IMG/VR virus record: IMGVR_UViG_3300021467_000082 | Origin: a virus | Lineage: Duplodnaviria; Heunggongvirae; Uroviricota; Caudoviricetes | Direction: 5' to 3' (one strand) | Length of the DNA: 64,000 nt | Shown: positions 23,369 through 64,000 of the stretch, piece by piece | Layout of the letters: the number at the start of each line of letters is the position of its first letter | How positions within the stretch are numbered: position 1 is the stretch's first letter | The notes under the pieces: model-generated | What the model was told of the DNA's origin: nothing | What the model saw: the letters and a program-made list of their open reading frames with translations, nothing else | Database searches by the model: none | Translations under genes and position numbers: made by a program

Positions 23369-24871
23369 TTAGATTTCTTCACCAGTTCTTGGATCTATAA
23401 TTATATATTTCTCCAATGTCCTATCCATCACCGCAATAGGAGATAAATCCTCTCCGGAGAAAATACTTGCTAGAATTGATGGGCTAAACCCAGACACCAA
23501 AGCTGTTTTCGTCTTATAAGCTAATGCTGGTGAACCAGCATAACCAGCTGTATTCCAATAGACTATCTTTGGAGGAATATAGCCAGCTTCTTCAAATTTC
23601 GCTAAACACCTCTCGACCGGTGTACGCCCTTTTTCAATTCTAACAGGGACGTATGCAGCAGCCGTGAATTGCATATCAGATATTATTAATAGTGTAGTAG
23701 GCATTTGTTCTTGTTTCAAATTGAAAAATTTGGCGACTTTCAATATGGACATTAATGCTTTATCAATTCTAGTAGCTCCAACCGCGCCATCAAAAATCGC
23801 TTCATTTCTCACCGCTTGTGCGAATGTCATGCCTGACCAATCTTTAAACTCACTTTCACTACAGAAAGCTATGAATTTTCTATAAAATGGATTATCTTTG
23901 CCGATTTTATCTGAACAATATAGTGCCATGCCAATGGAAACATGTACCGCTTCTACAGACCCACCAATTATAGATCCCATTGATGCCGACGTATCTGCTA
24001 TGACAATTATCTTTTCATTGGTGCCCTCTAAAAAATTTGGTAACGCTTCAAATTGGGCATTAGCTATTTCATCATCACCGTGCATAACAGTCCTTACACA
24101 ATCATGCGGAAATAGCGCATCAGAATGTACTTTTGCCTCACCCTTTACAAGCGCTTCTTTGTATTTCTCAAATCTTTCAGCATCATGTCTATTAAAAGCG
24201 TTGGTATAACGTGCCATTGCTACAGAAGGCACGGTTTCATAATTTATTTCTTTCCACATGTTATGGCACATTTTGTGCTCAACTATATGGTCCTTTCTTA
24301 TATCGGCCAAGAACCGTCTAAAATTCGCTATTGTCATTCCCAAGGCCTTTCTAAGTGGAGCATACTCTCGTTTTGCCCATTTCGCAGCTAATACCGTTTT
24401 AGATTTCAAAGCGTTGGCCCATAATTCTACCGCAGCCCTTTCTGCTTTTGTATTAAATAATGCTTTAAGATCGTCCCATCTACCAACAACAGGCAACCAT
24501 CCGATATTCGCAGTAATCCATTCTGGTGCATTATCTCCTAACCAGTTATAAATGGACCTGGCTCCGCTGCGATTGCCAGCCCCTCCTCTACAATCGCGTA
24601 GCCACAACAATAGTTTCATTGATGTCACAGGATCTACTACCCATACTTTTTGGAATAATCCCAAAGCAGATTCTTCTTGGCCATAAAAACTTCGTCTGTT
24701 TTCGAATAAAGACCCAGCTTTACTGAAAAATTCTATTGCGTGATCCATACTAAATTCATACTGCAAAGCACCTTCGTTTGTCCTTTTCATATTAAATCCT
24801 CCTTTCAGGCTGATATTTTGGAGGCCAGCTGTTGGTTTGCTGTAATCAGCCTTTCCATAATTATAGCACAA
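23369..24871 (-). CDS. vWA-domain protein with a long N-terminal helical domain; possibly TROVE/Ro60-like
   Basis: C-terminal MIDAS IIVIADTSASMGS with a classic vWA fold; size and architecture (about 300-aa N-domain plus vWA) fit Ro60/Rsr; RNA-repair genes nearby. Confidence 0.55.
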   Translation of the reverse strand: MCYNYGKADYSKPTAGLQNISLKGGFNMKRTNEGALQYEFSMDHAIEFFSKAGSLFENRRSFYGQEESALGLFQKVWVVDPVTSMKLLLWLRDCRGGAGNRSGARSIYNWLGDNAPEWITANIGWLPVVGRWDDLKALFNTKAERAAVELWANALKSKTVLAAKWAKREYAPLRKALGMTIANFRRFLADIRKDHIVEHKMCHNMWKEINYETVPSVAMARYTNAFNRHDAERFEKYKEALVKGEAKVHSDALFPHDCVRTVMHGDDEIANAQFEALPNFLEGTNEKIIVIADTSASMGSIIGGSVEAVHVSIGMALYCSDKIGKDNPFYRKFIAFCSESEFKDWSGMTFAQAVRNEAIFDGAVGATRIDKALMSILKVAKFFNLKQEQMPTTLLIISDMQFTAAAYVPVRIEKGRTPVERCLAKFEEAGYIPPKIVYWNTAGYAGSPALAYKTKTALVSGFSPSILASIFSGEDLSPIAVMDRTLEKYIIIDPRTGEEI

Positions 24872-24895: not shown

Positions 24896-27800
24896 TTAAC
24901 ATCCTATTGCATTTTGTTGATTTGGAACAACCAGTTTATCAATATAATCGGATAACAATCTATACACATCTCTCATTTTCGTCGTTGTTAGAATATCCTT
25001 AACCTTCATCTTCTCGGCTTTGAGCCGCTCTAGCTTGTCTTCTATACTCTCAGTTTGTGTTTGCAGCAATCTTTTCAACATAAAGCTTGGCAGATCAGCT
25101 GCGCTGTCTTGCAGATGATCCAACAATCCAAATGGGCCAAGGCTAGCTCTAGTTGCAAAATAAATTCTATTTCTTTTTCTCACTATGAAGTTAATTATTT
25201 TACTTCCTCCTCTGGCCTTTGCTCTAGCATGAAATTCTTTTAGATTCTGTATACCCAGCTTTGCCGCTTCAGATTTAATCAAATTACACAACAACTCGCT
25301 AGGACGCCTGTCAAATCCCAGACTGACCATGGCATCTACGTCAGCTACACATATTGCATCAGTAGCTTCTTCTTGCAGAGATTTGATTCCATGCTTCTGC
25401 TTAAAAACAGTATTGCCAAGAAAATCCAGCAACAGCTCTAGATGAGCATGTTCTTCAGTTTCAGAATATGGTACATTTCTTTCTACTATTCTCATTAGAT
25501 TATATGCCAACGCAATTACTGGTCCAGTATGACTTTTAACACCAGTTGCTTTTCGTACCAACTCTGCATGTTCTTCATTAGTCGGTTTTGGAAAATAGCA
25601 TATATTGAAATCATCAAACGTCATTTCCTGTATCCTTGGAACTTTCTTACTATTCATTTTATTTATAGCATCAATACATACTTTATTTGGATTATGAAAC
25701 TCCTTTCTCAAAGCTTCTCTTGCCTCTGCAGTATGAAACGATGCCAAGAACAAAGTATCTCCATCAAAATCTAAACTTAAACTTACCAGACTATTTCCAC
25801 TTACTCGAATAACATATCTACACAGTGGATCATCGGTTATTTGCACTTTCTGGGGCCTAATAGACATAAATCCCAAGCAGGGAAATCTTTCTACCAATAC
25901 AATATCCCCAGTCTTCACGTTCAATTGCTGCGCCATATCTCTATGAATCTCAATCGTATTTGGCGGTAGATTATCAGCCAGCGCAGCTACTCCATGCGCA
26001 GAATAAGGATACCTTATAGCCATTCCATATGTGCTCAATTCTCCTCTCTTTGTTCCCATGCTCCTGGCAACTACCCTAAAATACTGCGAAACAGCCCTCA
26101 TAAGTTCATTTTGATTGATTATACTTTTGTCCTCTACAAATTCATGGGTTAGTTGAACAATCCTATTTACCAAAATTCCTACTTGGCTTAGTCCCCACTT
26201 TCCAGATGGATGCCGCCAGCATCTGCGCAGTAGAGCATTTGGAATAAATATTTGATTATATCGATAGACATCATATGTATTTGTATCAACATCATCATCT
26301 GGCAATCCCATAGAAAAATCTTCTTTATCCTGTTTATTAACAACAGCTTGAAAATAACAAGGCAGCCGCATTATAAACCCATCAGCAAAAAATTCTTCAT
26401 CTACAATTGTTCCTTTTATTTCATCAATTGTATGAAGAAAACCTCGGCGCAAATCAACGAATCTAATATCTTCAGCATCAATAATTGGATAGTTAGTGTC
26501 TACTTCTCCTTTAGCAGAATGTAGAATCCTAATTTCGTCTTTAATAATTTCTACTCCTTGTGCATGAGACATTACTTCTTTTATTATAGGGTTGCCAGGA
26601 CCGAACCTAGTTACTAGCGCTTTAATTTCAACATGACTAAATTTCAACCCAGAAGTTCGCAGCTCTCTATTATTCGTAATCCATGCCTTCTTATCGTCCC
26701 ATATTTGATCTTCTGGATCTTTGGTTACGCCCCAAAACATCTTACCTACAACTGCCTGGAATTCTCCACAATATGTTCTAATCATCCAAGAACCATCTTC
26801 TGGAAATCCCTTGGCTTTTAACGCAGCCTTAATTTTACCTTTAGTAACTATATATTCATCGTCTATAACTATTGGATCATCGCCTTCATTCAGATTATTA
26901 GCGAGCATTTCCAATAGTTGGCCAAAATTCTTTCTTTTATTAATAGACGTTCCAGATATGATAACATCGATAGGCACTTCCTCACCGGTTTTTGGATTAA
27001 TGGCTACACCAAGATCCATAAACTTAACAATGCCTTTATTTGCGTGCAGATTGGAAAATTTACTACCGTCTTTCAAAAACCTCTTTCCTTCAACAGTGAT
27101 AATCGTTGCTTTAATTGGCATATTATCCAATTCAACCACAACTCCATTAATGGTCAAGATTTTACCCTCATCACAGCGAAGATCCATTATAACTGGCTTG
27201 CCATCCGGAGAGAAACCTAACTTATCTCCGAATCTTATATTGTCGCCTTCCTCAACTAGGATCTTATCGCCATATATTGTAAACTTCTTATTTACTGTAT
27301 GCGATAGACTCAATAGTCGTTTATCAACCAAAATCTGATCTTCAAAAGTCAAAGGCGTATCCAAAATTGCAGTCGTAAGATTCCAACCCCTTCTTTCAAA
27401 CCCCTTGTCTATAAGTTTCTGCATACTCTTGGTTCTTATCCTAGGCAGCTCATCGCCTTGCATACACAGAGTGGAATATAGATTTCTTTGTGGATTGTGG
27501 AACATTCCAAATGGGGTTATCCTCCGCATATCTAGATCCAGCAGATAATTCTTATCAGCTAATACACCGTCGCTTAAGCCTATTGCAGTCCAGCCAAACT
27601 TTTGATAATATTTTCTATTTTTTTCTACTTGATACTCCAGCCTTTTATTTGGATCTTGAAGTCTATTAAATTCAGGATCTATTATGATGATCCTATGATT
27701 CATGGCCCATGTATTCATGTCAGTTTCATGAATTGGCATTGTATTTACTATTTCATCTATCAATCTCTGAGTACTCATTACCATATAACTGACTTGATTA

Positions 27801-28174
27801 TTCTTGAAGGACCTTGCAATTTTCGCTACCATTGGGGTTCCACTTTCAATATGTGGAAAGATTACATTTACATCGTCCAATAGTAGTTTTTCAATAACTT
27901 GCAAATAAGACAATTCTTCTTGCTTCTCTTCTAGCCAATACCTAGATACTGCTCTCTTAATCCCATTTCTAATTATGAATACCAGGCCATTTTCTATTAC
28001 AGGGAGTGGTATTTCCAAAGCTTTGCTTATTTCTGCATTTTCAAATATAAACCATAAACTATGCTCTACAATTTTAGTTTTTATGTTAGCCGTTACTTTT
28101 GCAAAAGTTTTGTTTCTGTTAAACTCATTCTTCACCCTTTCGGCCAAGATTATGGCCTCATCCATCGGCTCCAT
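24896..28174 (-). CDS. multisubunit RNA polymerase subunit: beta C-terminal half fused to beta-prime N-terminal half
   Basis: Beta motifs SKFSNLHANKGIV (GNKGV), SINKRKNFGQLLE (PSRMNxGQ-like), HVEIKALVTRFG (GEMEVWAL-like), followed by the beta-prime catalytic SLDFDGDTLF (NADFDGD). Confidence 0.8.
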   Translation of the reverse strand: MEPMDEAIILAERVKNEFNRNKTFAKVTANIKTKIVEHSLWFIFENAEISKALEIPLPVIENGLVFIIRNGIKRAVSRYWLEEKQEELSYLQVIEKLLLDDVNVIFPHIESGTPMVAKIARSFKNNQVSYMVMSTQRLIDEIVNTMPIHETDMNTWAMNHRIIIIDPEFNRLQDPNKRLEYQVEKNRKYYQKFGWTAIGLSDGVLADKNYLLDLDMRRITPFGMFHNPQRNLYSTLCMQGDELPRIRTKSMQKLIDKGFERRGWNLTTAILDTPLTFEDQILVDKRLLSLSHTVNKKFTIYGDKILVEEGDNIRFGDKLGFSPDGKPVIMDLRCDEGKILTINGVVVELDNMPIKATIITVEGKRFLKDGSKFSNLHANKGIVKFMDLGVAINPKTGEEVPIDVIISGTSINKRKNFGQLLEMLANNLNEGDDPIVIDDEYIVTKGKIKAALKAKGFPEDGSWMIRTYCGEFQAVVGKMFWGVTKDPEDQIWDDKKAWITNNRELRTSGLKFSHVEIKALVTRFGPGNPIIKEVMSHAQGVEIIKDEIRILHSAKGEVDTNYPIIDAEDIRFVDLRRGFLHTIDEIKGTIVDEEFFADGFIMRLPCYFQAVVNKQDKEDFSMGLPDDDVDTNTYDVYRYNQIFIPNALLRRCWRHPSGKWGLSQVGILVNRIVQLTHEFVEDKSIINQNELMRAVSQYFRVVARSMGTKRGELSTYGMAIRYPYSAHGVAALADNLPPNTIEIHRDMAQQLNVKTGDIVLVERFPCLGFMSIRPQKVQITDDPLCRYVIRVSGNSLVSLSLDFDGDTLFLASFHTAEAREALRKEFHNPNKVCIDAINKMNSKKVPRIQEMTFDDFNICYFPKPTNEEHAELVRKATGVKSHTGPVIALAYNLMRIVERNVPYSETEEHAHLELLLDFLGNTVFKQKHGIKSLQEEATDAICVADVDAMVSLGFDRRPSELLCNLIKSEAAKLGIQNLKEFHARAKARGGSKIINFIVRKRNRIYFATRASLGPFGLLDHLQDSAADLPSFMLKRLLQTQTESIEDKLERLKAEKMKVKDILTTTKMRDVYRLLSDYIDKLVVPNQQNAIGC

Positions 28175-37205: not shown

Positions 37206-37451
37206 TTATGGATCTACTCTCTCCACTACCTTATCTATGAAATTTTGTAATGCTCGTGTAGCGTGAATAGAATCCACTACTATATTCTTTTTAGTGGAAA
37301 ATAGAGGTACTTTCGTTTTCTTGTTATATTTTACTGCAACCACTTTGTTTTCATCAGAGTCATGTTTAAATACTGCAACGATATCATTGTCAGATATTGA
37401 AAGAGCCTCAAAATCAAAACGTGATAGATCAACAGTGTTAATGGTTTCCAT
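37206..37451 (-). CDS. hypothetical small protein
   Basis: ORF track, 81 aa. Confidence 0.4.
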   Translation of the reverse strand: METINTVDLSRFDFEALSISDNDIVAVFKHDSDENKVVAVKYNKKTKVPLFSTKKNIVVDSIHATRALQNFIDKVVERVDP

Positions 37452-38829
37452 TTTGTTCCTCCTTTTCCAATTCGTTATAAGCTTGTAGTATTAAGTCATG
37501 GAGTTGACTTTTGTAATCAGAAATAGATTCATCCATTATTTTATCAGCAACCATTCTTTTTATTTTACCAACTAGAGGAGATGGTTTGATATTGCATAAT
37601 TTCATTATCAAATTACCATCTATTAAATCGACCAACGGTCTGTTATATGCTAATTGTTTCTGCCTTTCAATAATCTCATTTATTTTTTCTAATTTTCGAT
37701 CAAAGCTACCATAATGCATGAATTCTTCGCCTCGCGAAAACTCATCTGCCCACGCCACCTCTACTAATGTATCAAAGTATGGACTTTCTGCTATTCTTGC
37801 TATTTTAGATGGGCGCATATTTAATATATGATTGAACTTCATGTGATTTCTTACGGCGAATAATATACGATCTTTTTCCATATTTGAGAATTTTAATCGA
37901 GTTAATATATGCTCGGCTATATCTGTACCTGCCACCTCATGTCTATAATAGTGAACACCCTTCTCATCTTCGCTAAAGGTAACCCCTTTACCAATATCAT
38001 GAAGCAATATTGCCATCAGCGTAGTGAAATCATTTGTTCTAGCTATCTCCAAGCACTTTATAACATGATCAAATACCGTTGTTCCTTCTGGATGATGTCT
38101 CATATTATGTTTGTAGTATTTTAAAATAGACACTTCAGGAATGATTTTGGACAATAGACCAAAATAATCGCTCAATTTAATAAAATTAGTAAATTCTTTT
38201 ACTCCATATTTGCTGGCCTTATAAAACTCTCCCCTAATTCTTTCCGGGGCTATTTTAATTATCTTACTATTATATCTCCTTATGGCCATTCTAGTTTTAT
38301 TTTCGATGTTGAATCCAAGCGCTGCAAACCTTATTGCTCTAAGCATTCTTAAATAATCTTCTGAGAATCTCTCTGACGGATCTCCTACCGTTCTTAGTAT
38401 CTTATTTTCAAGATCTTCCTTACCACCGACCTTATCTATAATATTGCCATGTTTATCCATAGCCATGGCATTTATAGTGAAGTCCCGACGCATAATATCT
38501 TCATCTAACGATACGCCTATCTTAACAGACTCTGGCCTCCTCCCATCCAGATATTTTCCATCAGATCTAAACTGTGCGATTTCAAAATACATGTCTTTAT
38601 AACATATTAAGCATATGCCAAAATCTTTTGATTGGCCTATATTATAAGTATCGAAAATCTCTTCCAAAATTTTGAGCGGGCAATTTGTAGTGATATCAAC
38701 GTCTTCAGCTCTGCGCCCGCTCAAAATATCCCTTACAGTGCCGCCTACTATATACGCTTCATATCCTAATGCTTCTATTTCACTTAGCAGCTTCATAGCT
38801 ACAAGTACATTTTTAGACAACATTGCCAT
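37438..38829 (-). CDS. cca: CCA-adding enzyme (tRNA nucleotidyltransferase, class II with HD domain)
   Basis: Head IVGGTVRDILSG...EDVDITT, neck RLRAIRFAA, HD motif LLHDIGK. Confidence 0.85.
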   Translation of the reverse strand: MAMLSKNVLVAMKLLSEIEALGYEAYIVGGTVRDILSGRRAEDVDITTNCPLKILEEIFDTYNIGQSKDFGICLICYKDMYFEIAQFRSDGKYLDGRRPESVKIGVSLDEDIMRRDFTINAMAMDKHGNIIDKVGGKEDLENKILRTVGDPSERFSEDYLRMLRAIRFAALGFNIENKTRMAIRRYNSKIIKIAPERIRGEFYKASKYGVKEFTNFIKLSDYFGLLSKIIPEVSILKYYKHNMRHHPEGTTVFDHVIKCLEIARTNDFTTLMAILLHDIGKGVTFSEDEKGVHYYRHEVAGTDIAEHILTRLKFSNMEKDRILFAVRNHMKFNHILNMRPSKIARIAESPYFDTLVEVAWADEFSRGEEFMHYGSFDRKLEKINEIIERQKQLAYNRPLVDLIDGNLIMKLCNIKPSPLVGKIKRMVADKIMDESISDYKSQLHDLILQAYNELEKEEQNGNH

Positions 38830-38842
38830 ACCCCAATTATAC

Positions 38843-40177
38843 TTAGTCTTTCAAATTTATAATAGGCTTTATTACATCAACAATTTCAGCTGTAGGCGCA
38901 ATGGCTTCTTTAATGATGTTTGAATCTTTGTATGCGTTTTTAGTTTCATCAGCAGGTATTGAAGAAGCAAATATACCTGCCGCTCTCATTCTTTCAGCCG
39001 CCTTTTCTACATCCACTAATTCTTTTGCCTTGTTTCGAGATAACATACGCCCAGCACCATGAGGAGCCGAATAATTCCATTCTTGGTTAGCTAACCCCTT
39101 GCATATTAATGTTCCATCTTCCATGTTAAGTGGAATTAGGATGAATTTAGTATATGCTGATATTGCGCCTTTACGAATTATAAAATCGGAAAAATCGATG
39201 TAATTATGAACAGATTCTATTTCATAAGGTTGAGGATCATGTAGACCCATAACGTTTTCAGATACGATCTTACCAATCAACCTTCGATTTTCCTTGGCAT
39301 ATACAGTAGTGAAAATCATGTCATGCAAATAACCATATGCGTCTTCCCCTTCCAAATACTCAAGGCCTTTAGCAACTTTGTTATCCATCTCCAAATAAGC
39401 TCTCAACTGTTTTATGGCTTCTGGTATTAACTTACGCTGGGCTTTTGTAGTGTGTGTACGTTTAATTTCTTCTAGCCCCGCTTTAAATTTTTCTTGCTTC
39501 TTCTCATTCATCTTCCTAATTGGAGTACCCTGCCAATATTCACATATCTTTTTACCGAAATTTCTAGATCCACTATGGATTGTCAGCCAAAGAGATCCAG
39601 TGCTATCTCTTCCTACCTCAATGAAATGGTTTCCGCCTCCAACGGTGCCTAAACTATTAACTGCTCGCCCAGCGTCGATTCCAATGATCTCACATTTTGA
39701 TATGAACCAATCGTAATCATAGGAAATTGGTTCCACATTCGTAGAAAAAGTCTTATTAAATTTTGACCAAAAGGTTCTGGCAATCTTTCTAACTTCTTCC
39801 CAGGGGAAATCTTTCTCCATATTAATTATTGGATTTTCATGTATTTCGTATCCGAAGGGCACTTTTGCTCTGATAGAAATGTCCAACTGCTCTAAATTTT
39901 TTATATCTCTTATAGGAAGTTTTCTCGCATAGACACCGCACCCAATATCTACTCCAACAACATTCGGCACTAGTTTGGTCGTCAGAGGCATAGTAAATCC
40001 AATAACAGCCCCTTTTCCAGCATGACAGTCCGGCATAATTGCCACTGGGTTGGTAAAGGCAGGATTATTAAGAAAGGACACTATCTGTGATAATGTAGTT
40101 TCATCTACATTGTCTATCATAATTTTGGCCTTAGTATATTTACCTACCATTTCAAACACGGCACTGTCCTCCATCAA
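38843..40177 (-). CDS. rtcB: RtcB RNA ligase (3'-phosphate/5'-OH)
   Basis: MPDCHAGKGAVIGF, GGGNHFIEV, HSGSRNFG, SAPHGAGRM. Confidence 0.9.
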   Translation of the reverse strand: MMEDSAVFEMVGKYTKAKIMIDNVDETTLSQIVSFLNNPAFTNPVAIMPDCHAGKGAVIGFTMPLTTKLVPNVVGVDIGCGVYARKLPIRDIKNLEQLDISIRAKVPFGYEIHENPIINMEKDFPWEEVRKIARTFWSKFNKTFSTNVEPISYDYDWFISKCEIIGIDAGRAVNSLGTVGGGNHFIEVGRDSTGSLWLTIHSGSRNFGKKICEYWQGTPIRKMNEKKQEKFKAGLEEIKRTHTTKAQRKLIPEAIKQLRAYLEMDNKVAKGLEYLEGEDAYGYLHDMIFTTVYAKENRRLIGKIVSENVMGLHDPQPYEIESVHNYIDFSDFIIRKGAISAYTKFILIPLNMEDGTLICKGLANQEWNYSAPHGAGRMLSRNKAKELVDVEKAAERMRAAGIFASSIPADETKNAYKDSNIIKEAIAPTAEIVDVIKPIINLKD

Positions 40178-40196: not shown

Positions 40197-40919
40197 TCAT
40201 AGCTTCCTCATTTTTTTCTTCTTTATTAATTCTACCAATACATCGCCATGGCAGGGCAAAGGTTTACAATAACAACCAAGCCTCTTTCCTTCTAATTCAT
40301 CTAATGCGGCCAACAAATCAGGTCTAGTTAACACGTAATTTCTGTATTTTTCTATTACCTCTTCACGTGTCCCATCTATACCAATTCTAAATGGGTTTCC
40401 CCATTTGCTTCCCCTTCCAATATAGACATCGTAGGGTTCATGTTTGAGGTTGACTACCCTTGTCTTTGGTTTGTATTCTGGTATTATAGTATTTACTTTG
40501 GTTATTTTATCATTTACGACAAGAATTATTATGATTGGAATATTATATTTTTTGATGGCAAGATCTATCATATGCTTTGTACCTGTGGATTTACCATCCC
40601 ATATGGCAACTACTACGTCTTTTTGTGTCAACATTTTAATCATTTCTTCGTTTCGTTTCATACCGGCTAAGGCGTTATATTCTTTGCCAAATCTATTGCA
40701 CTTTCTCACAACTGGAGGACTCACGTCCTCCCACCTTGCCTGCACCTCAAACAATTTAACCTCATTAGCCAATGCCCACTTTCGGGCCAGCGAATCAACT
40801 CCGCCGGCCCCACCTTCAATTACTGCTGTGGCTGTACTTGAAAACTTGTCAAGTATCTGCTTGACTATATCATAGTTAGTAATACTCCTACTTCCAGATA
40901 CTAATATCTTCATTTTCAT
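40197..40919 (-). CDS. two-domain protein: N-terminal SLOG/DUF2493-like (VSGSRS...EGGAGGVDSLA) plus C-terminal DUF4326-like (GSKWGNPF...CYCKP.PCHGDVL); paralog of 50951-51670
   Basis: Shared architecture and motifs between the two ORFs. Confidence 0.5.
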   Translation of the reverse strand: MKMKILVSGSRSITNYDIVKQILDKFSSTATAVIEGGAGGVDSLARKWALANEVKLFEVQARWEDVSPPVVRKCNRFGKEYNALAGMKRNEEMIKMLTQKDVVVAIWDGKSTGTKHMIDLAIKKYNIPIIIILVVNDKITKVNTIIPEYKPKTRVVNLKHEPYDVYIGRGSKWGNPFRIGIDGTREEVIEKYRNYVLTRPDLLAALDELEGKRLGCYCKPLPCHGDVLVELIKKKKMRKL

Positions 40920-50950: not shown

Positions 50951-51670
50951 TTATTTTAATCTATTTTCTAATAATTCTACTAACACATCACCATGACATG
51001 GCTCAGGCTTGCAATAACAACCTAAACGTTTGCCTCTTAACTCCTCCAAATCATTCAGCAAATCCGGCCTACTCATTATATATTGTTTATACTTCTCTAT
51101 CACCTCCTCGCGGGTACCATCTACTCCGATTTTAAACGGGTTTCCCCATTTACTACCTTGGCCAATATAAACATCATATTTTTCATGGCGTAAATTTACT
51201 ACTTTGGCTTCGCTGGCTGGTTTCATATTTATCACGTCTATCTTATCTCCGTTTACCAATATCAAAATTACATTTCGTCCATAACTTTTAGCTGTTTCAA
51301 TCATGTGGTTTGTACCTGGTGAATGCCCGTCCCAAAATGCTAAAAGAGTATCGCCTAATTTTACCATTTCTTCATTTCTTTTGAAGCCGGCCAAGGCGTT
51401 GTATTCCTTGCCGTATCTATTATATTTCTTCTTGACTGGCGGGCTCATATTATCCCACTTAGCAAGCACTTCGATACATTTTATATTATTTTCCAAAGCC
51501 CACTTTTTTGCCAATGAGTCTACTCCTCTAGCGCCTCCTTCTATTATACATTCTATATCTCTCATACTGTTTAATACTGCCGATACTAATTCATAATTTG
51601 TTATAGATCTACTACCGGACACTATTAATTTCATAATCACCTCATCTAATGGTGCCCAGCGGGCAGCCAA
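50951..51670 (-). CDS. SLOG/DUF2493-like plus DUF4326-like two-domain protein (paralog of 40197-40919)
   Basis: IVSGSRSITNY...IEGGARGVDSLAKKWA; GSKWGNPF...CYCKPEPCHGDVL. Confidence 0.5.
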   Translation of the reverse strand: MAARWAPLDEVIMKLIVSGSRSITNYELVSAVLNSMRDIECIIEGGARGVDSLAKKWALENNIKCIEVLAKWDNMSPPVKKKYNRYGKEYNALAGFKRNEEMVKLGDTLLAFWDGHSPGTNHMIETAKSYGRNVILILVNGDKIDVINMKPASEAKVVNLRHEKYDVYIGQGSKWGNPFKIGVDGTREEVIEKYKQYIMSRPDLLNDLEELRGKRLGCYCKPEPCHGDVLVELLENRLK

Positions 51671-55486: not shown

Positions 55487-55550
55487 GTCGATCGATCACA
55501 CTTTCGACGTCGAAAATTTTTGAAATCGATTTCACACTTCGCGTCGATCG
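55487..55550. repeat. palindromic ATCGATCGA-containing elements (TCGATCGATCACACTTTCGACGTCGAAA ... CGCGTCGATCGAT); similar TCGATCGATTGATCGATCGA at 56250-56280
   Basis: Seen in sequence. Confidence 0.6.
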
Positions 55551-56189: not shown

Positions 56190-56369
56190 TTTTCTACCTC
56201 CAATATCAAATTGTTAATAAATTCAATACCTTATTATTAATTTGCCATCGATCAATACATCGATCGATTGATCGATCGACAATAGGCCAAAAAATTAAAT
56301 ATAATAATTTCAGTATGTTAGTTTACTTTTCCCTATATAGGGTATATAAAATTTAATACCACCAAATGT

Positions 56370-56490
56370 CTATAAACTCAATGTATAAACTTAATATATA
56401 AACTTAGTATATATACTGAGTTTATAAACTCAGTGTATAAATTTAGTATACAAATTCAGTTCATATACTCAGTTCACAAACTGAGTATAT
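56370..56490. repeat. iteron-like array: about 8 imperfect 13-bp direct repeats (CTCAGTGTATAAA / CTGAGTTTATAAA / TTAGTATATA...)
   Basis: Seen in sequence, immediately upstream of the only plus-strand gene and at the strand-switch point. Confidence 0.65.
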
Positions 56491-56591
56491 AAATTTACCA
56501 TTTTTTTCATGTTTATCACTTTTTAGTTTACAAACTCTATTTTTTGTGCTATAATATATAAAGGTACAAGTAAATCTGTGCCAAATTCAAT

Positions 56592-56605: not shown

Positions 56606-57076
56606 ATGATATTCGTATTTTACAATGAAGAATATGATGCGTACAAATTTATGTTTAATACTAATGGCGTATTAAATACGGTGGCTAATGAGAAATTAGT
56701 TAGTGTCATTGAAGGGGATAGGAATGATTTAAAAACTATTAAAAAGCTTCTCCAAACTCCTAGCGGCTGGGCGCCGGCTAGTGAACAGGTAAAAAAATTC
56801 ATATTTAATAGAGAAATGGATGTAACTGTTACAATTGCTATGTACAAAGATAGAATGTTCATTTCTTTATCTGATATTGCACAAACAAAACGTTACTTGC
56901 GTAGGGAATTGTATTATGATGTTAAGACGGATTATATTGAATATTGTCTTTCATCGCATAAATTTGCCGAAATGATTAATTCCTTGGAGAGATTTCATAT
57001 TAAGCACTCCGTTTATCAATTAAATGATGAATCAAGGCAAATTTTAGCCGGTTTTGAGGAGTACAAAAAACCTTAA
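56606..57076 (+). CDS. hypothetical protein; the only convincing plus-strand gene in the window
   Basis: ORF track, 156 aa; strong RBS; low-GC codon usage like the rest of the window. Confidence 0.65.
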   Translation: MIFVFYNEEYDAYKFMFNTNGVLNTVANEKLVSVIEGDRNDLKTIKKLLQTPSGWAPASEQVKKFIFNREMDVTVTIAMYKDRMFISLSDIAQTKRYLRRELYYDVKTDYIEYCLSSHKFAEMINSLERFHIKHSVYQLNDESRQILAGFEEYKKP

Positions 57077-57199
57077 TTTTGTTATAAAAATTAGCCAATT
57101 TCACATCAATTTTTTGAATTTTGTTTCCAAAGAATAGTGTATTCGACATGAAATCAGCCGTTTTGTTACGTAAATTTAAACGGGTTAAGCGTAAATTTT

Positions 57200-57439
57200 T
57201 CATTTTGTTTTTACCATATTTTCCAGGACAAATTCCAACGTTTTATCCGCCAAGACGGTCATTTCAGATAATGTCTTGGATAAATAGGATGTCCATTCAT
57301 CTATTTGTTCTTTTGGTATTTCTATATCATTTTGAACTATAGCCCCGGCCATGGCAATCTTATTCCCTATTTGACGCCATGTTTTAAACAGCCTTTCCCT
57401 CATTACAGTCTTCTCATCTAATTCCTTATGTATTTCCAT
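57200..57439 (-). CDS. hypothetical protein
   Basis: ORF track, 79 aa. Confidence 0.4.
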   Translation of the reverse strand: MEIHKELDEKTVMRERLFKTWRQIGNKIAMAGAIVQNDIEIPKEQIDEWTSYLSKTLSEMTVLADKTLEFVLENMVKTK

Positions 57440-57780: not shown

Positions 57781-57850
57781 CTCATACTCTGCAATTGGAT
57801 TTGTGTGGATGATAAATTTAAACGGGTTTGATGTAAATTTTTTTGTTTAT

Positions 57851-57887
57851 GATTAAAAAATGGGGAATCCCCATATGGGGACTCCCC
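57851..57887 (-). terminator. 26-bp near-perfect palindrome GGGGAATCCCCATATGGGGACTCCCC, followed on the minus strand by ATTTTTTAAT; rho-independent terminator of the high-GC block
   Basis: Seen in sequence; lies exactly at the compositional boundary. Confidence 0.6.
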
Positions 57888-57926
57888 TGGTTTAGGCGTG
57901 CTACTTAGTAGTACGAAAGTTGAAAC

Positions 57927-58652
57927 TTACATAGCGAATGGATCGGGCGTTGCTACTGCTTGGCCCTGAGTGTTTACAGGCGCTGTTTGGCCTTGGTTGG
58001 CCTGGGCGAGCTGTTCCTGCAATGCCCTAATCTGCGCTTCCAGTGCATTCAGTGCTTCATTGCCTTGAGCTGTGGGCGCAGCGGGTGCTCCAGGCTGTGT
58101 CATGGTCTGTGGCCCTAGGAATCCCTGGCCTTTGATGAAGACCCTGGCATTTCCATACATGCCGGTCTGGGCAACCACAGCAGGATTATAATCCACGAAC
58201 GGCTGCGCATCGACATGCAGCAAGTATTCAGCTGTGACAGTGCAATTAGGCGGCAATAGGCCTTCCGCCTTGGCACGCTGAATATTGGCATTGATCCTGG
58301 CACTCAGCTCTTTCATCGAATCTCTACCGAATTCGAACTTATCGACATGAACGGTAGTAATTCGATATATTTCTCTTTTACCATTGGCCTTTACCCTGCC
58401 GGTGTCGATGGAGTGGGATTTCAGTCTACCCATTACATTGATGCAGCGGCCTTTCTTCAGATATAGTGCAGCCATTTGGGCATACTTACCCCAGAATACC
58501 AGGGTATATTCATCCCTTATATCCCGGCCATCTCTTGTCTTGCTATTGTGGATAGCAGTGAGAATGGTCCTATGCTTGCTGGGATCATTGTGAGGGAAGA
58601 AAGTAGGATTACCGGCCACATAAACGTTGGACAATTGTACGATATTACTCAT
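57927..58652 (-). CDS. ssb: single-stranded DNA-binding protein with Q/A/P-rich linker and a C-terminal ...TPDPFAM tip
   Basis: OB core EYTLVFWGKYAQMAALYLKKGRCINVMGRLKSH...YRITTVHVDKFEF closely parallels the bacterial SSB consensus. Confidence 0.8.
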   Translation of the reverse strand: MSNIVQLSNVYVAGNPTFFPHNDPSKHRTILTAIHNSKTRDGRDIRDEYTLVFWGKYAQMAALYLKKGRCINVMGRLKSHSIDTGRVKANGKREIYRITTVHVDKFEFGRDSMKELSARINANIQRAKAEGLLPPNCTVTAEYLLHVDAQPFVDYNPAVVAQTGMYGNARVFIKGQGFLGPQTMTQPGAPAAPTAQGNEALNALEAQIRALQEQLAQANQGQTAPVNTQGQAVATPDPFAM

Positions 58653-58742
58653 TTGGAACCTCCTTTTAATGTAATGTTTGTTTATGGTTGAAATGCTTTT
58701 CTTTTGGCTACAATGTTTGTTGTAGCACGCCTAAACTCCTCA

Positions 58743-59222
58743 TCAATCGGTCTGAGCCGCTATTAGCGGGTCTATCATTTGAACAACCCACTCTTCTTCA
58801 GACTCTTCGTTGCGACAGACCGAAAACTGTACTTCCTGACGCGTAATAGGTATGGACAGATCCTCTCCGGATTCATTTTGAATGCAGAAGTCAACGTCCC
58901 ACTTTGCTTTCTTTTTGTTTCTTGCGATAACTACGCTGAGTCCATATACGCATCCTACCATTGGCAGTAAATATTCATGTTCCTGTAGCCATTCGCTGAA
59001 TTTGGCGTGATCGAACATGAATGTGAATTCGTATAAATATCTATTATTGTCGATGTCTATTACTTTTATTTTACTCTCAATCACCACTCCAATCGGTCTC
59101 TCCGAACGGAGGGTCGAGTCCGAGGAAATCGTACCATTCTTCAGCATCTTCTCTAAATTCGATGCCGCTTTGATCAATGTCTTCCTCAGGTACACATCCG
59201 ATATATTCTTCGTAATCATCAT
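58743..59222 (-). CDS. hypothetical protein (true start may be an internal Met; overlaps the next ORF)
   Basis: ORF track, 159 aa; high GC. Confidence 0.4.
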   Translation of the reverse strand: MMITKNISDVYLRKTLIKAASNLEKMLKNGTISSDSTLRSERPIGVVIESKIKVIDIDNNRYLYEFTFMFDHAKFSEWLQEHEYLLPMVGCVYGLSVVIARNKKKAKWDVDFCIQNESGEDLSIPITRQEVQFSVCRNEESEEEWVVQMIDPLIAAQTD

Positions 59223-59511
59223 TCACCTCCTTTATTTCTTCGATTGGTTCATATTCGTCCATCAGTGCCAATTGGTGCATTTGCTCTTCGATCATTGCTA
59301 TTTTCATCAGAGCTACATCTTTTGGCAATATTCTTAATGGTTTATTGGAACTTGGGTCGAGAATGAACATGACTTCATCCCCGACCCGGAATCCTTCATT
59401 GTCAAAGGTAGCGACTCCACCTGGGATCTTCGCTTTTATCTTGGTTTTATCTTTGCTTACCCATATCACGGTTCCGGAATAAGCTTTAGTCCAATCCATC
59501 TGTACCTCCAA
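59077..59511 (-). CDS. acidic hypothetical protein
   Basis: ORF track, 144 aa. Confidence 0.45.
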   Translation of the reverse strand: MEVQMDWTKAYSGTVIWVSKDKTKIKAKIPGGVATFDNEGFRVGDEVMFILDPSSNKPLRILPKDVALMKIAMIEEQMHQLALMDEYEPIEEIKEVNDDYEEYIGCVPEEDIDQSGIEFREDAEEWYDFLGLDPPFGETDWSGD

Positions 59512-60037
59512 AGTAATTCAATACGAAATCTGGAATTCCAGCTTGGTCAACTTCTGGAATTTCCATGTCATCAGTTTGAGACGCCGCCTGCGTTTGTGCA
59601 AACTGATTCATTTGAGGAGTAGGCTGATATTGCTGCGTAGCAGGCTGGGTAGGCTGGGCTGGACGATAAGCTGGCGTTCTGGCTGGATAAAATTGACCAT
59701 CTTGAATGCGGCCTGTGAACTGGTCCAGAGCGGTGTTTATGATCCATGCAATCTTGGAACCGGCTCTCGCCATTTTGGCATATTCACTGCCTTTATTTGG
59801 ATTTTGCTCAAGAATCCTGATGGTTATTGTCTGACCATTGATCATCAGGGGAATATCAAATCCTCTCAATGTAGCCTGGCCAGTTACAGAGTTCTTAAAC
59901 CAACGGCCACGACATCTACCATTGATAATTGCCGGATGGACCAATTCTACCGTAGTAATGTCGCTATTGACGGCCTTGCTCTCAAAAATCAGAGCCCACG
60001 CCTTCTTAACCAATGCCATTTTTTCTTGATTTGTCAT
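59486..60037 (-). CDS. hypothetical protein with a Q/P-rich linker and acidic ...DDMEIPEVDQAGIPDF segment
   Basis: ORF track, 183 aa. Confidence 0.5.
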   Translation of the reverse strand: MTNQEKMALVKKAWALIFESKAVNSDITTVELVHPAIINGRCRGRWFKNSVTGQATLRGFDIPLMINGQTITIRILEQNPNKGSEYAKMARAGSKIAWIINTALDQFTGRIQDGQFYPARTPAYRPAQPTQPATQQYQPTPQMNQFAQTQAASQTDDMEIPEVDQAGIPDFVLNYFGGTDGLD

Positions 60038-60055
60038 CTTGTACCTCCTCTGTTT

Positions 60056-60817
60056 TTATTTACAATCAAACGCTTCATAGGCCGTGAGATAATATTTATT
60101 ATCTACCTTTTGGCCTATTACGCCTTCGTCAATTCGGGCCATGAGCCGCTCTATCTCGTCTATCTCAATTTCTTTGGTCAGCGCTGCGATGGTTGATAAT
60201 TCTGCCGCGGCGTTGGTGCCATTCAGTTGTAGCTCTTCTTTCACTTTGTTTGGCATTTTAGGCATAATGTGTTGAAAGACGTTTAGTATTAATTGGCCCA
60301 GATAACCCATTTCTTCTATTCTTGGCAGATTGTGATGTGCTAGATAATCTGCCATTAGGGCTAGGCCGTTTTCAGTGGCTTGTACCTCATATTCTCTTGG
60401 CAGCTCGTCTAGTTGTGCCAATTGTGGTTCTTCTTTCAATTGCCATGCATGAATCAGTTCATGATAGAGTCCATAAACTAGGGACATCCAGACGGCAGCA
60501 CTTAGTCTGATGCCTCTTCTAATCCACGTCGCGTCAGTAATTACTGCGTCCATATTAATTAGTATTGTCTTGGACTTAGGGGCAAATCCAGCAAACCCTC
60601 CCATATCCTTCAATTGAATTTCTCTTCCTTCCTTCAATTTAAATTTGTCTGTAGCCTTGCCGATTAGAATTTCATCAACAAGGCTTTCGTCTATGGATTG
60701 GGTTAGTTCTGTAAACTGCTTGGGCAATTCTACTGTTGTCAATATTACCATTTCTACACCTCCTTTTTTATTATTATCGTTAATTCGGGATGAGCCGATA
60801 TTGGCGAGTTGATTCAT
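60056..60817 (-). CDS. putative zinc metallopeptidase (HExxH)
   Basis: YHELIHAW (HELIH motif). Confidence 0.5.
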   Translation of the reverse strand: MNQLANIGSSRINDNNKKGGVEMVILTTVELPKQFTELTQSIDESLVDEILIGKATDKFKLKEGREIQLKDMGGFAGFAPKSKTILINMDAVITDATWIRRGIRLSAAVWMSLVYGLYHELIHAWQLKEEPQLAQLDELPREYEVQATENGLALMADYLAHHNLPRIEEMGYLGQLILNVFQHIMPKMPNKVKEELQLNGTNAAAELSTIAALTKEIEIDEIERLMARIDEGVIGQKVDNKYYLTAYEAFDCK

Positions 60818-60888
60818 TTGTCTGTGGCGTACCTATTCATTTGGTAGGTAGCCACAGACGTAGATCTTCACCGGGACGCTGACCCTTC

Positions 60889-61398
60889 TTATTTATGGCA
60901 GACTATAAACCTGTCGTCCAGGATTGGTTCTAATATTGGCTTCACCTCCCTTCTCCAGTCTAATTCTCCGGCCCCGCAACCAGGTCGAGGCATATACACT
61001 TCTGTAATTCCGAATTTATCAATCATCATCCTCAATTCAATTGTACTTTTGCGGATTATGTCAATATCCGCTCTGGCGGCCCAACCAGGAACTGTATCAC
61101 CTAATCTAAACTTGGCCGCCATATGCCTCACTACATTATTACCATTGTTAATAACTTTATCTGGTTTAACGGGAAATGAAATTAAGTGTTTACCGTCTAA
61201 TTGTTTGCCTAAGTAAATGACTCTATTACCATAGCGCTTAATAGCTTGGCCTAATGTATAGGCTATTCGAGGATAACGCTGTGTGGCCTCTTTTGCGCAT
61301 CCCCGACCCATAACACATTGGCCATTTGTTTTAACGAATCCATTTGTGGTTATTACAACTGTTCTACCATCCCATATATCACCTTGTCGTTCTATCAC
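60889..61398 (-). CDS. macro-domain-like protein
   Basis: GDIWDGRTVVITTNGFVKTNGQCVMGRGCAKEA and VYMPRPGCGAGELDW resemble macro-domain ADP-ribose-binding loops. Confidence 0.5.
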   Translation of the reverse strand: MIERQGDIWDGRTVVITTNGFVKTNGQCVMGRGCAKEATQRYPRIAYTLGQAIKRYGNRVIYLGKQLDGKHLISFPVKPDKVINNGNNVVRHMAAKFRLGDTVPGWAARADIDIIRKSTIELRMMIDKFGITEVYMPRPGCGAGELDWRREVKPILEPILDDRFIVCHK

Positions 61399-61933
61399 TT
61401 TTACACCTCCTTTCTCTATTCAACCTATTCATATTTTTCAGTGTTATTATGCCTCCCAGTATGAACTGCTCTGGCTCTGTTACTTTTTTGTTAACAAATG
61501 TTATGAAGTCATTTACCGACATTAGATCGACGGTTAACAAATGTTTCTCGCCTTTCCTATCGGTTCCGACTTGATATATTTTACCTTCGTGCATTGTGAA
61601 TGTCACTCCATCTATTTTAACGTCAATGCCATTCCATAATGCTTTTAGGACTGTTACTATTGGCGGAATATTCATTTGACACCCCTTTTCATATAAATGA
61701 ATTAATGGTTTCAAGTAGCGAGCGGAGCGGGGTAGCAGAGCACTTCGGCGGGTGGGTCGCACTTGTGCGGATGAGCCGTACACCCATGGTTTTTTCACCA
61801 CCGATTTGCCCACCCTAAGTGCTCTGCTATTATTCATGTTCACCTCCTTTCGTTTAGAATGGTTAGAATGGGCAGTCATCATCATCCACAACAGCATTGG
61901 CAAATAGATCAAGCGGCACCGCCTCGCCATCAT
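61379..61933 (-). CDS. hypothetical protein
   Basis: ORF track, 184 aa. Confidence 0.45.
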   Translation of the reverse strand: MMARRCRLIYLPMLLWMMMTAHSNHSKRKEVNMNNSRALRVGKSVVKKPWVYGSSAQVRPTRRSALLPRSARYLKPLIHLYEKGCQMNIPPIVTVLKALWNGIDVKIDGVTFTMHEGKIYQVGTDRKGEKHLLTVDLMSVNDFITFVNKKVTEPEQFILGGIITLKNMNRLNRERRCKSDRTTR

Positions 61934-62621
61934 CTGACTTGACCGATGCTCCGGCGCCTGGTTGGGCCACAGGGCTAGATTGCGGAGGTCGCTGCATCAA
62001 CGAGTTTACCACTTGTTGCAGCTGGATAAGCTGCGCCTGCAAAGCCTGAATGTCCGCTGTGGGTTGCTGTGGCTCAGGCGCTGTGCCCACTTCAGCCACT
62101 TTGCGAGGATGGGAGATTATTTTGATGGAATCGCCGTATTCCGTGAATACAGATAGGGATATCTCTACGGCGGCCTCCCCTGCCCTGGTTTGGAAGGGAA
62201 TCAGTATTGGCTGATGATTCATAACAATTATCTCTACCAACGCGCCCTTCCTCATGTTCTCATGTTCGGTTGGGATTTCCGGAGGAGTGTGGATGCTAGC
62301 CCCAAAACCAAACACCTTAAATCGATAATACGGCCTGAGGCCGCCAGTGGAGGCCCTATGCTTCTCATACCTCTCCTTTTCCTTATCAGTTAGCATTGGA
62401 TAAATGGTTCCCTCAGAAATAGCCATTGTTTTCTGGCCATCCCTGGTAGTCAACCACTGAAGTGGGCTATGGCACTGTGGACATGTACTATGGGTGAAAT
62501 GCGAGTACATCTTTCCACATTGCGGACACTTCATATCCCATAGATAATTATCATGCCCCAAATACCCTCTAATCTTCATTGCGAAATTCACATGCATCTT
62601 CTGGTCCTGTCTTGTTGCCAT
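61863..62621 (-). CDS. zinc-ribbon protein with a Q-rich linker and canonical SSB-like acidic C-terminus (DDDDCPF)
   Basis: CPQCGKMY...CPQCH ribbon; QALQAQLIQLQQ linker; terminal DDDDCPF. Confidence 0.5.
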   Translation of the reverse strand: MATRQDQKMHVNFAMKIRGYLGHDNYLWDMKCPQCGKMYSHFTHSTCPQCHSPLQWLTTRDGQKTMAISEGTIYPMLTDKEKERYEKHRASTGGLRPYYRFKVFGFGASIHTPPEIPTEHENMRKGALVEIIVMNHQPILIPFQTRAGEAAVEISLSVFTEYGDSIKIISHPRKVAEVGTAPEPQQPTADIQALQAQLIQLQQVVNSLMQRPPQSSPVAQPGAGASVKSDDGEAVPLDLFANAVVDDDDCPF

Positions 62622-62986
62622 GATAACTCCCCCTTTCTCTTATCTATAGATTTGGTCAACCTCTTCAAATGACCCCGTCAATTCTGCCAATTCTAAACAA
62701 TACTCGTATTGGCAGTCCAAACACTCCTTACATTCAGTTGGTGTGTTATCACAATATTCACACCATGGGATTGCAGGGATTGGAGCGTTGTGGTACTCTA
62801 TTTCAGCCATTTTTCTCCTCCTTTCGAGATTTATAGGTATTATATGCCCTAAGTGCCTTATCCTCTATCTCCCCGTCTGAAAACACCTCCTCTCTATCGG
62901 GTTTGGCCGTTACGACACCCGTAAAACTCCTATTAACTATTTCTTGGATTTTTTCTAGTGGGAATAAGTTTTTCATGCTCCACCTC

Positions 62987-63370
62987 CTATTTTATTAGTT
63001 GGAATGTAAATACGGACAATCTGTTAGTTTTTCGCTTATCGACCTCTGACACCTTATAACCACGATTGATTAAAATGCGCCTCATCCTCCATAGTGCCAG
63101 AGCAATACCGTCCTTAGGAGTGCAGAAGCGCTCCGGTCTTTTCACCCTTTGCCAGGTTTTCCCATTGTCAAGGGATCTAGACGGAATAGACCAGCGTTTG
63201 AAAACACGATTGTAAGTCTGTCGATAAATAACTCTCATGATTATACCTCCTTTCCTAGGCCCGAAGATCAACTGGCCTGCCCTCCTTTGTGTGTGGCAGG
63301 TAGAGTACTGGCCGCTCCTCTGGTTTTTCGGTCTTGGAACAGTGCGCCAACCTAAAATACTTAGCCCCAA
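62987..63370 (-). CDS. basic hypothetical protein
   Basis: ORF track, 127 aa. Confidence 0.4.
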   Translation of the reverse strand: MGLSILGWRTVPRPKNQRSGQYSTCHTQRRAGQLIFGPRKGGIIMRVIYRQTYNRVFKRWSIPSRSLDNGKTWQRVKRPERFCTPKDGIALALWRMRRILINRGYKVSEVDKRKTNRLSVFTFQLIK

Positions 63371-63441
63371 TTAATATCTCCTTATGTCTATGCATGTGAC
63401 CACCTCCTCCTCGGTTGTCTCATTGGTTATAAATAAGTCGA

Positions 63442-63633
63442 TTATAAGTTTTTAACGTTAATCTTCACCTCCTTTCCGTCTACCACTTCAAAGTGGCCGT
63501 ATTGAACATCCTTGTAGCCGGCCCGGCGCAGGCTCAAGATATCACCAAGAATATCCTTACCCCTGCCGGATATACTCAAATAGTTCCATGGTGAATTAGC
63601 ATCTTCCCTATATCTTACATTATAAATTCTCAT
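63442..63633 (-). CDS. hypothetical small protein
   Basis: ORF track, 63 aa. Confidence 0.35.
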   Translation of the reverse strand: MRIYNVRYREDANSPWNYLSISGRGKDILGDILSLRRAGYKDVQYGHFEVVDGKEVKINVKNL

Positions 63634-63736
63634 AACAACCTCCTAACCAAGTAATCTATTAGATATCATTATATAAAACATGACAACCGCGAAATACTCC
63701 GTTAATGTCAAGCCTTGACAAACCTCAATTTGGGCA

Positions 63737-63949
63737 TTAATGAATTCTGTCATTACCTCCATAGAACCCTCCTTGCCCTCTGGCCTTGACTCCGACGTAT
63801 TCTCCACCATAGTTTATCTCCCCTTTGAAACTGAATTGTCCATCATGCAGAAATAACTTAGACAATGCCCAATTAGCGAATTTCCTCATTATTTGCCTCC
63901 TTTTCTTCTTCAGGGTGAAATACACCACATTGCGCACAATGGCCGACAT
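63737..63949 (-). CDS. hypothetical small protein
   Basis: ORF track, 70 aa. Confidence 0.35.
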   Translation of the reverse strand: MSAIVRNVVYFTLKKKRRQIMRKFANWALSKLFLHDGQFSFKGEINYGGEYVGVKARGQGGFYGGNDRIH

Positions 63950-63962
63950 CTCTTAGGTCATA

Positions 63963-63991
63963 AGGTAGGCGTACCCCCCCCCCGCCTACAT
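63963..63991. repeat. inverted repeat GTAGGCG ... CGCCTAC flanking a 10-C homopolymer
   Basis: Seen in sequence near the window end. Confidence 0.5.
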
Positions 63992-64000
63992 CACTTGCAA

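Follow-up and report, generated by a model that had tools for sequence, protein, structure and literature searches.

The 64,000-nt stretch of DNA analysed here (hereafter the window) comes from a tailed phage of the class Caudoviricetes and is held as IMG/VR record IMGVR_UViG_3300021467_000082. Nearly all of its genes lie on the minus strand, including those of a G+C-rich block at its right-hand end (57851-64000, referred to as the island), which an earlier note, made from the letters alone, had read as a recently acquired mosaic module whose source was possibly the host or a phage of higher GC. The compositional boundary near 57.85 kb on which that reading was built is real. G+C content is 0.350 over positions 1-57850 and 0.443 over 57851-64000, a single-changepoint likelihood scan peaks at 57861, where the log-likelihood rises by 102, and none of the 115 left-hand 500-bp intervals exceeds 0.412 G+C, as compared with 0.40-0.53 in the island. 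The shift is seen at all three codon positions, with G+C at first, second and third positions (GC1, GC2 and GC3) of 0.436, 0.322 and 0.302 in the 81 left-hand open reading frames (ORFs) and 0.509, 0.387 and 0.457 in the nine island ORFs, and GC3 differs significantly between the two sets (Mann-Whitney p = 8e-6). The GCC-, CTG-, GGC- and CAG-type codons said to mark the genes from 57927 onward are all enriched there (from left to island, the codon fractions are 0.08 to 0.25 for CTG, 0.16 to 0.34 for GCC, 0.22 to 0.33 for GGC and 0.30 to 0.48 for CAG). Two further contigs, L001 and L002, reach past the window, and on them G+C drops again to 0.32-0.38 no more than about 200 bp past the window end. 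A two-boundary fit on L002 places the 3' edge of the island at window positions 57849-57884 and the 5' edge at about 63984-64189, which makes the island about 6.2 kb long. This 5' edge falls among small genes that all run in one direction, and a search there gave no terminator-like site. Plus-strand GC skew is about -0.25 in the bulk (1-55000) and -0.05 to -0.14 in the island (57900-63000) with an identical coding strand; the weaker skew is consistent with the extra C-ending codons of the island.

The last gene of the island in the direction of transcription (57927..58652, minus strand) encodes a 241-residue protein resembling single-stranded DNA-binding proteins (SSBs) and has a GC3 of 0.51, among the highest in the window. 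Its OB fold is N-terminal and a further conserved domain comes next, after which a coiled linker rich in Gln and Ala leads to the C-terminal DPF motif; the protein ends in ...TPDPFAM, where DPF is conserved, F239 is invariant and the tip is not acidic. It scores 26.6 bits against the Pfam SSB family (PF00436; cut-off 26), and its family profile finds SSBs in the PDB at E = 1.7e-6 to 1e-3. What had been called a bona fide SSB is on both counts an SSB-like, putatively DNA-binding protein. Upstream of it on the minus strand lie the conserved protein p159 (58743..59222; 114 residues, 58743-59087, in public gene calls), the acidic-tailed p140 (59077..59499; C-terminus ...WYDFLGLDPPFGETDWSGD) and p183 (59486..60037), which has a Gln/Pro-rich linker and the acidic C-terminal motif IPE..GIPD[FY]V. 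Orthologs of p159, p140 and p183 were found in 17, 15 and 18 of 18 lineages, respectively, and the tail motif of p183 is kept in all of its orthologs; the acidic tails of p183 and p140 are conserved features, and none of the three proteins gave a family match in domain and profile searches.

The next gene (60056..60751, minus strand; the longest ORF extends to 60817) encodes a 231-residue zincin-like metallohydrolase with the HExxH motif HELIH at residues 97-101. An ortholog is present in 18/18 diverse loci, and all 18 keep HExxH down to 21% identity. The peptidase-like character ascribed to this protein holds in the form of a zincin-like fold as in YbeY, ArdC and Wss1. It differs from the nucleic-acid-associated metallohydrolases of this kind (YbeY, the ArdC protease domain, Wss1/SprT) in having no family match at the sequence level; Foldseek returned no significant match and a PDB sequence search was uninformative.

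Two less widespread genes follow. The first, an accessory gene (60889..61398, minus strand), encodes a 169-residue protein with profile matches to phrog_335 (1.6e-20) and to the macro-domain structures 5m3i (4e-6) and OARD1 (0.013) in the PDB; the PADLOC DarG model matches at 5.8e-10 over residues 105-161 only, and the Pfam Macro score of 13.3 bits is under the cut-off of 22. The macro-domain assignment of the earlier note is supported, and the protein is probably DarG-like: by profile similarity, the gene appears to encode a stand-alone macro domain of the DarG type without a DarT partner. Its orthologs are restricted to contigs L011 and L014 among the 18 lineages, both in the AT-rich clade. 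The second gene (61379..61837, minus strand), a lineage-specific ORF of 152 residues present in public assembly gene calls, has orthologs in 0/18 lineages.

The Zn252 gene (61863..62621, minus strand; orthologs in 17/18 diverse loci) encodes a second SSB-like OB-fold protein. It has a CxxC...CxxC zinc ribbon and a coiled linker and ends in an SSB-Ct-like tail, DDDDCPF, the canonical-looking tip that the 241-residue protein lacks; its sequence search against the PDB was uninformative. With this tail and the DPF of the 241-residue protein, the SSB-tail-like acidic ends noticed earlier are indeed found on several island proteins. The 5' part of the GC-elevated tract is filled by small ORFs of 56, 57, 83, 46, 63, 55 and about 70 residues (62640..63949, minus strand), whose L014 orthologs are AT-rich. 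Two distinct SSB-like OB-fold proteins (57927-58652 and 61863-62621, minus strand) thus bracket the conserved core of the operon. The coiled-coil-like segment and the (V)DPF-type C-terminal tail are common to both families, which suggests that the two proteins may dock on one partner.

The junction at the 3' edge carries a predicted intrinsic terminator (57855..57887, minus strand), made up of a hairpin at 57887..57862 (GGGGAGTCCCC-ATAT-GGGGATTCCCC) and a T-run at 57861..57855. The 26-bp palindrome (57862-57887) has an 11-bp stem with eight G-C pairs and a 4-nt ATAT loop, and is followed on the minus strand by ATTTTTT. It folds at -24 kcal/mol (z = -4.9), a value equalled by 0/200 shuffles, and it lies 40 nt past the SSB stop codon, at the end of the co-directional gene run. 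In 16/17 loci checked, a hairpin of -20 to -36 kcal/mol with a T-run is found 20-80 nt past the SSB stop, and the stem sequences are unrelated across loci, so that structure is kept and sequence is not. This makes a strong case for a Rho-independent terminator that would close the SSB operon. The near-perfect palindrome and T-tract reported at the junction are therefore present as described; however, because the island genes and the terminator are all on the minus strand, transcription of the block runs towards the junction, where the hairpin marks its end and not its beginning.

Just beyond the terminator lies a sigma-70-like promoter element, TTTACA-17-TATCAT (57809..57855, minus strand), within one copy of a 43-nt direct repeat. 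The two copies of the repeat (57171-57213 and 57813-57855) are 77% identical, and each contains such an element and is situated just upstream of a minus-strand gene start, the second copy beginning 7 nt beyond the SSB terminator. The core 16-mer of the repeat has two exact sites in the window and no others, and is not a genome-wide motif. The element probably starts the next, AT-rich transcription unit. In the lineage at 79% SSB identity, an extra DUF4325 gene with a GC3 of 0.15 (L014 10938-11282; L015 6971-7315) separates the SSB terminator from the ortholog of the following gene, f110, which marks the terminator junction as a site of gene gain and loss.

In order to place the island within its phage family, we collected 67 metagenomic homologs of the SSB and fetched the contexts for lineages at 79%, 70%, 54% and 51% SSB identity; a further 62 loci were recovered with the SSB family profile, and 32 of the 62 related and 20 earlier loci had adequate flank. 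The gene order Zn252...HExxH-p183-p140-p159-SSB is conserved throughout the relatives examined, and beyond the junction f110, f79, a reverse 156-aa gene and f89 are syntenic in two close AT-rich lineages. No empty site, meaning a relative without the core module, was seen among the relatives examined, all of which show synteny at the junction. The compositional step is likewise shared: in 32/32 loci, with SSB identities from 100% to 39%, the 5 kb up to the SSB stop are 0.05-0.16 GC-richer than the next 3 kb. In almost every locus the GC3 of the SSB gene exceeds the G+C of the locus (0.71-0.78 as against 0.46-0.50, for instance), and the GC3 of the module exceeds that of the other ORFs in 11/11 loci, the GC-richest included.

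The age of the island was estimated from its divergence. Island proteins share 50-82% amino-acid identity with their counterparts in close relatives, and flank proteins 25-90%; the 4-fold sites of conserved residues are identical at 0.39-0.40 in the island and 0.44-0.46 in the flank, where 0.26-0.28 would be expected at random. As divergence at both levels is the same or greater in the island, the island is by this measure no younger than its flanks, and its synonymous sites are estimated to be near saturation. The oligonucleotide signature is native as well: in the tetranucleotide comparison that had been put forward as a check on foreign origin, the distance normalised for base composition is 0.232 for the island, inside the range of 0.20-0.26 for native 6.1-kb chunks and hence no outlier. 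The AAAGGAGGTG ribosome-binding sites are identical in and outside the island.

To dissect the shift itself, we re-encoded the island proteins with bulk codon usage, which gives a G+C of 0.398 versus 0.354 for the bulk, so that +0.044 (about 45%) is attributable to amino-acid composition, the proteins being rich in Ala, Gly, Pro and Gln. The observed island coding G+C of 0.453 leaves a synonymous part of +0.055 (about 55%) in the form of G/C-ending codons. In the two-fold families, G/C-ending codons are favoured in 10/10 lineages, with pooled odds ratios of 1.16-1.96. The families do not respond equally: Phe, Ile and Lys are favoured in 10/10 lineages and Asp and Cys in 9/10, and the effect is weak for Tyr, Glu and Gln. 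This heterogeneity is significant in four lineages, the window included (p = 0.025), and leans, only moderately, to tRNA-linked selection over a uniform mutational or conversion bias.

The island is not homogeneous. Between the window and L014, the stretch that spans the macro gene through the SSB (57.9-61.4 kb) differs by 0.00-0.02 in G+C, whereas Zn252 and the region upstream of it (61.9-64.0 kb) lie above their L014 orthologs by +0.05-0.12 in G+C and by up to +0.25 in GC3. The island is therefore composite, with an additional GC3 rise in its 5' third that is specific to the window lineage.

Taken together, these data probably describe a native, replication-associated minus-strand operon, closed by a terminator and conserved across an uncultivated family of large phages, whose GC excess is long-standing and has expression-linked codon selection as its likeliest cause. 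The conserved core comprises, in transcription order, the Zn-ribbon SSB-like OB-fold protein, the HExxH protein, the three acidic-tailed proteins p183, p140 and p159, and the SSB, with accessory genes between the core genes, here the DarG-like macro domain. Transcription would stop at the hairpin, and a new, AT-rich unit would start a few bases later. The operon proteins would be abundant and/or early and would be translated with the tRNA pool of the host, the remaining, AT-rich genome would follow the mutational bias of the phage, and the Ala/Gly/Pro/Gln-rich composition of the proteins would add to G+C alongside codon selection. Differences in GC and codon usage between early and late genes are frequent in phages (Mioduser, Goz and Tuller, 2017; PMC5683454). 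As in those phages, a contiguous gene class differs here in synonymous codons, nucleotide bias and GC without being foreign; in contrast to them, the shift is unusually sharp, terminator-bounded, conserved family-wide and in part due to amino-acid composition.

Several observations weigh against this explanation. GC1 and GC2 are also raised, which codon selection alone does not explain, and the heterogeneity between codon families is modest and falls short of significance in 6/10 lineages. Structural genes, which could have served as a second highly expressed reference, are absent from the window. The GC3 of Zn252 is 0.53 in the window and 0.28 in both close relatives, a difference that simple family-wide selection does not predict, and the 5' edge of the extra GC lies within a gene run without a terminator.

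A rival explanation is homologous module exchange, in which part of the operon, especially 61.9-64.0 kb, was replaced by an allelic segment of an unsampled higher-GC relative, so that the extra GC3 stems from the donor. The confinement of the extra G+C to Zn252 and the small ORFs would fit such a replacement, as would the 5' edge not being an operon boundary and the somewhat greater divergence of these genes from L014 (38-74%) than that of their neighbours. Identity topologies of three taxa also switch from gene to gene. However, they do so equally often in and outside the island, which indicates that recombination among relatives is common here and does not single out the 5' third. A donor did not turn up, the nearest homologs of Zn252 and the SSB still belonging to AT-rich lineages, and the tetranucleotide signature is native. 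Exchange moreover offers no account of the excess of the module over its backbone in every lineage, the GC-richest included: module swapping alone should also have produced relatively GC-poor modules in GC-rich backbones, which were never seen among the loci compared. We consider this explanation unlikely, though the strongest of the alternatives.

Somewhat less probable again is that the G+C excess is kept family-wide by a force other than translation, be it biased conversion at a hot spot or selection on the DNA or mRNA (for example to shield the replication genes needed first from AT-targeting silencing or RNases), in an operon that would form a previously undescribed dual-SSB module for handling single-stranded DNA, with two unrelated OB-folds and one docking tail.

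Regional GC-biased gene conversion taken by itself, with the operon as a recombination hot spot of co-infecting relatives and AT-to-GC fixation irrespective of coding, appears improbable. The mosaic topology of the region speaks for it, as does the rise of both C-ending and G-ending codons; yet the flank genes are equally mosaic without a GC rise, and the shift varies between codon families. Nor are the island spacers significantly GC-richer (0.433 versus 0.39 for native short spacers, P = 0.17, on a small sample of 326 nt). Population variants point weakly towards conversion. Of the 23 genic single-nucleotide polymorphisms in the island, 17 are at codon position 3, and polarisation by majority gives 16 AT-to-GC and 8 GC-to-AT changes in the island as compared with 4 and 5 in the flank; this excess is suggestive only, since the sample is small and majority polarisation unreliable.

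That a foreign block was recently gained by horizontal transfer, from the host or a phage of higher GC, as suggested in the earlier note, is very unlikely in view of the relatives. This reading draws on the abrupt step in GC and GC3 and on the reduced GC skew, and the island does resemble horizontally acquired islands and morons of atypical composition (Lawrence and Ochman, 1997) in that GC and GC3 change sharply and one edge carries a terminator. It is unlike them in its native signature and ribosome-binding sites, in its synteny across the junction in all relatives, in an age equal to that of the flank and in a step and terminator that are family-wide. Mobility features are missing too: window protein searches gave no integrase or transposase family match, and a search for att-like or bracketing repeats around the island gave ribosome-binding sites only. 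A neutral foreign block is reportedly expected to ameliorate at synonymous sites once these are saturated, a notion associated with Lawrence and Ochman (1997); the island composition is un-ameliorated at sites near saturation, which argues that the island is not such a block. The taxonomic affinity that a separate BLAST of the block was hoped to reveal did not emerge, as neither the island nor 40-57.85 kb had a megablast match in INPHARED. A tblastn search of the SSB against INPHARED and an IMG/VR scan with the SSB were likewise without a match, and the phage helicase has only matches of at most 31% identity in INPHARED. The one bacterial homolog came from a scan of GTDB genomes and lies on a 2.5-kb binned Sedimentisphaerales contig that is useless as a host reference.

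A chimeric assembly of two genomes joined at about 57.86 kb, for which nothing but the composition step itself speaks, can be dismissed, and with it the mis-join that had been raised as a caveat, because the exact SSB protein is found on 10 further contigs that come from different samples by way of three pipelines (Logan, ENA and JGI) and align straight across the junction at 99.7-99.9% identity to the window, and diverged relatives share the junction as well.

The favoured reading, a native operon with a long-standing GC excess, makes the locus a cautionary case, in that an island of textbook foreign appearance is native and ancient once its relatives are compared; composition by itself is accordingly no sound basis for inferring horizontal transfer in phage genomes. 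The phenomenon belongs to a known kind; what is new is the uncharacterised phage family in which it occurs. The comparison also defines a conserved seven-gene operon for the handling of single-stranded DNA in a widespread family of sediment phages without a cultured relative, an operon in which two SSB-like proteins have a C-terminal tail in common and one slot takes up alternative DarG-like anti-defence candidates.

The SSB of Escherichia coli represents the homotetrameric bacterial type and ends in the acidic tail ...DDDIPF. The operon proteins resemble bacterial SSBs (PF00436) in their OB-fold, which is recognised by sequence in the 241-residue protein and by structure in Zn252, in a putatively disordered linker, and in a tail that ends in PF or in DPF plus a few residues. 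They differ in that two OB-fold proteins are encoded per operon, in the zinc-ribbon insert of Zn252 and the extra domain of the 241-residue protein, and in the coiled-coil-like segment that precedes the tail in both.

Phage-encoded orphan DarG-like antitoxins are known to counter DarTG defence (PMC11825919, PMC11481870, PMC13309987). The 169-residue protein is like them, judged from profile similarity, in being a stand-alone DarG-type macro domain encoded by a phage without DarT and in a context of DNA metabolism. In a distant relative (L019 5900-6361), a gene for a NADAR domain, the antitoxin domain of the DarG1 type, is found in the same operon and adjoins the Zn252 ortholog. By analogy with other phages (PMC11825919, PMC11481870, PMC13309987), the macro/NADAR slot may hold alternative orphan anti-DarT genes.

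The left 57 kb of the window look like the non-structural part of a large phage. They encode an RtcB, two homologs of the CCA-adding enzyme and three tRNAs (Thr-TGT, Pro-TGG and Trp-CCA; 306-1364, 6141-7511 and 37438-40177), which amount to a kit for tRNA repair and supply. The phage tRNAs were considered as a cause of the codon shift and are not relied on, as their codons show no clear split between island and bulk (ACA 0.36 versus 0.37, CCA 0.46 versus 0.36). Besides the helicase, this part contains a Ro-like RNA-binding protein (phrog_850, 23369-24871) and a 1092-residue protein (24896-28174) with a weak match to the RNA polymerase beta subunit (phrog_3295, E = 1e-4), for which tblastn gave no match among the 50,697 phage records of INPHARED. 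Two paralogous proteins with GTP-binding domains (40197-40919, phrog_289; 50951-51670, phrog_464) lie about 10 kb apart.

To the left of the junction lies a non-coding stretch of 22-25% G+C (54.9-56.6 kb); an Rfam search of 54-64 kb gave no match. Within this stretch, at 56355-56510 and directly upstream of the only plus-strand gene (56606-57076), a 13-bp unit (~GTATAAACTYAGT) is repeated in tandem about 11-12 times, and the copies jointly form a long imperfect palindrome. The array looks iteron-like and is a candidate replication origin or operator array. GATC-rich palindromes are found at 56248-56283 and 55487-55510.

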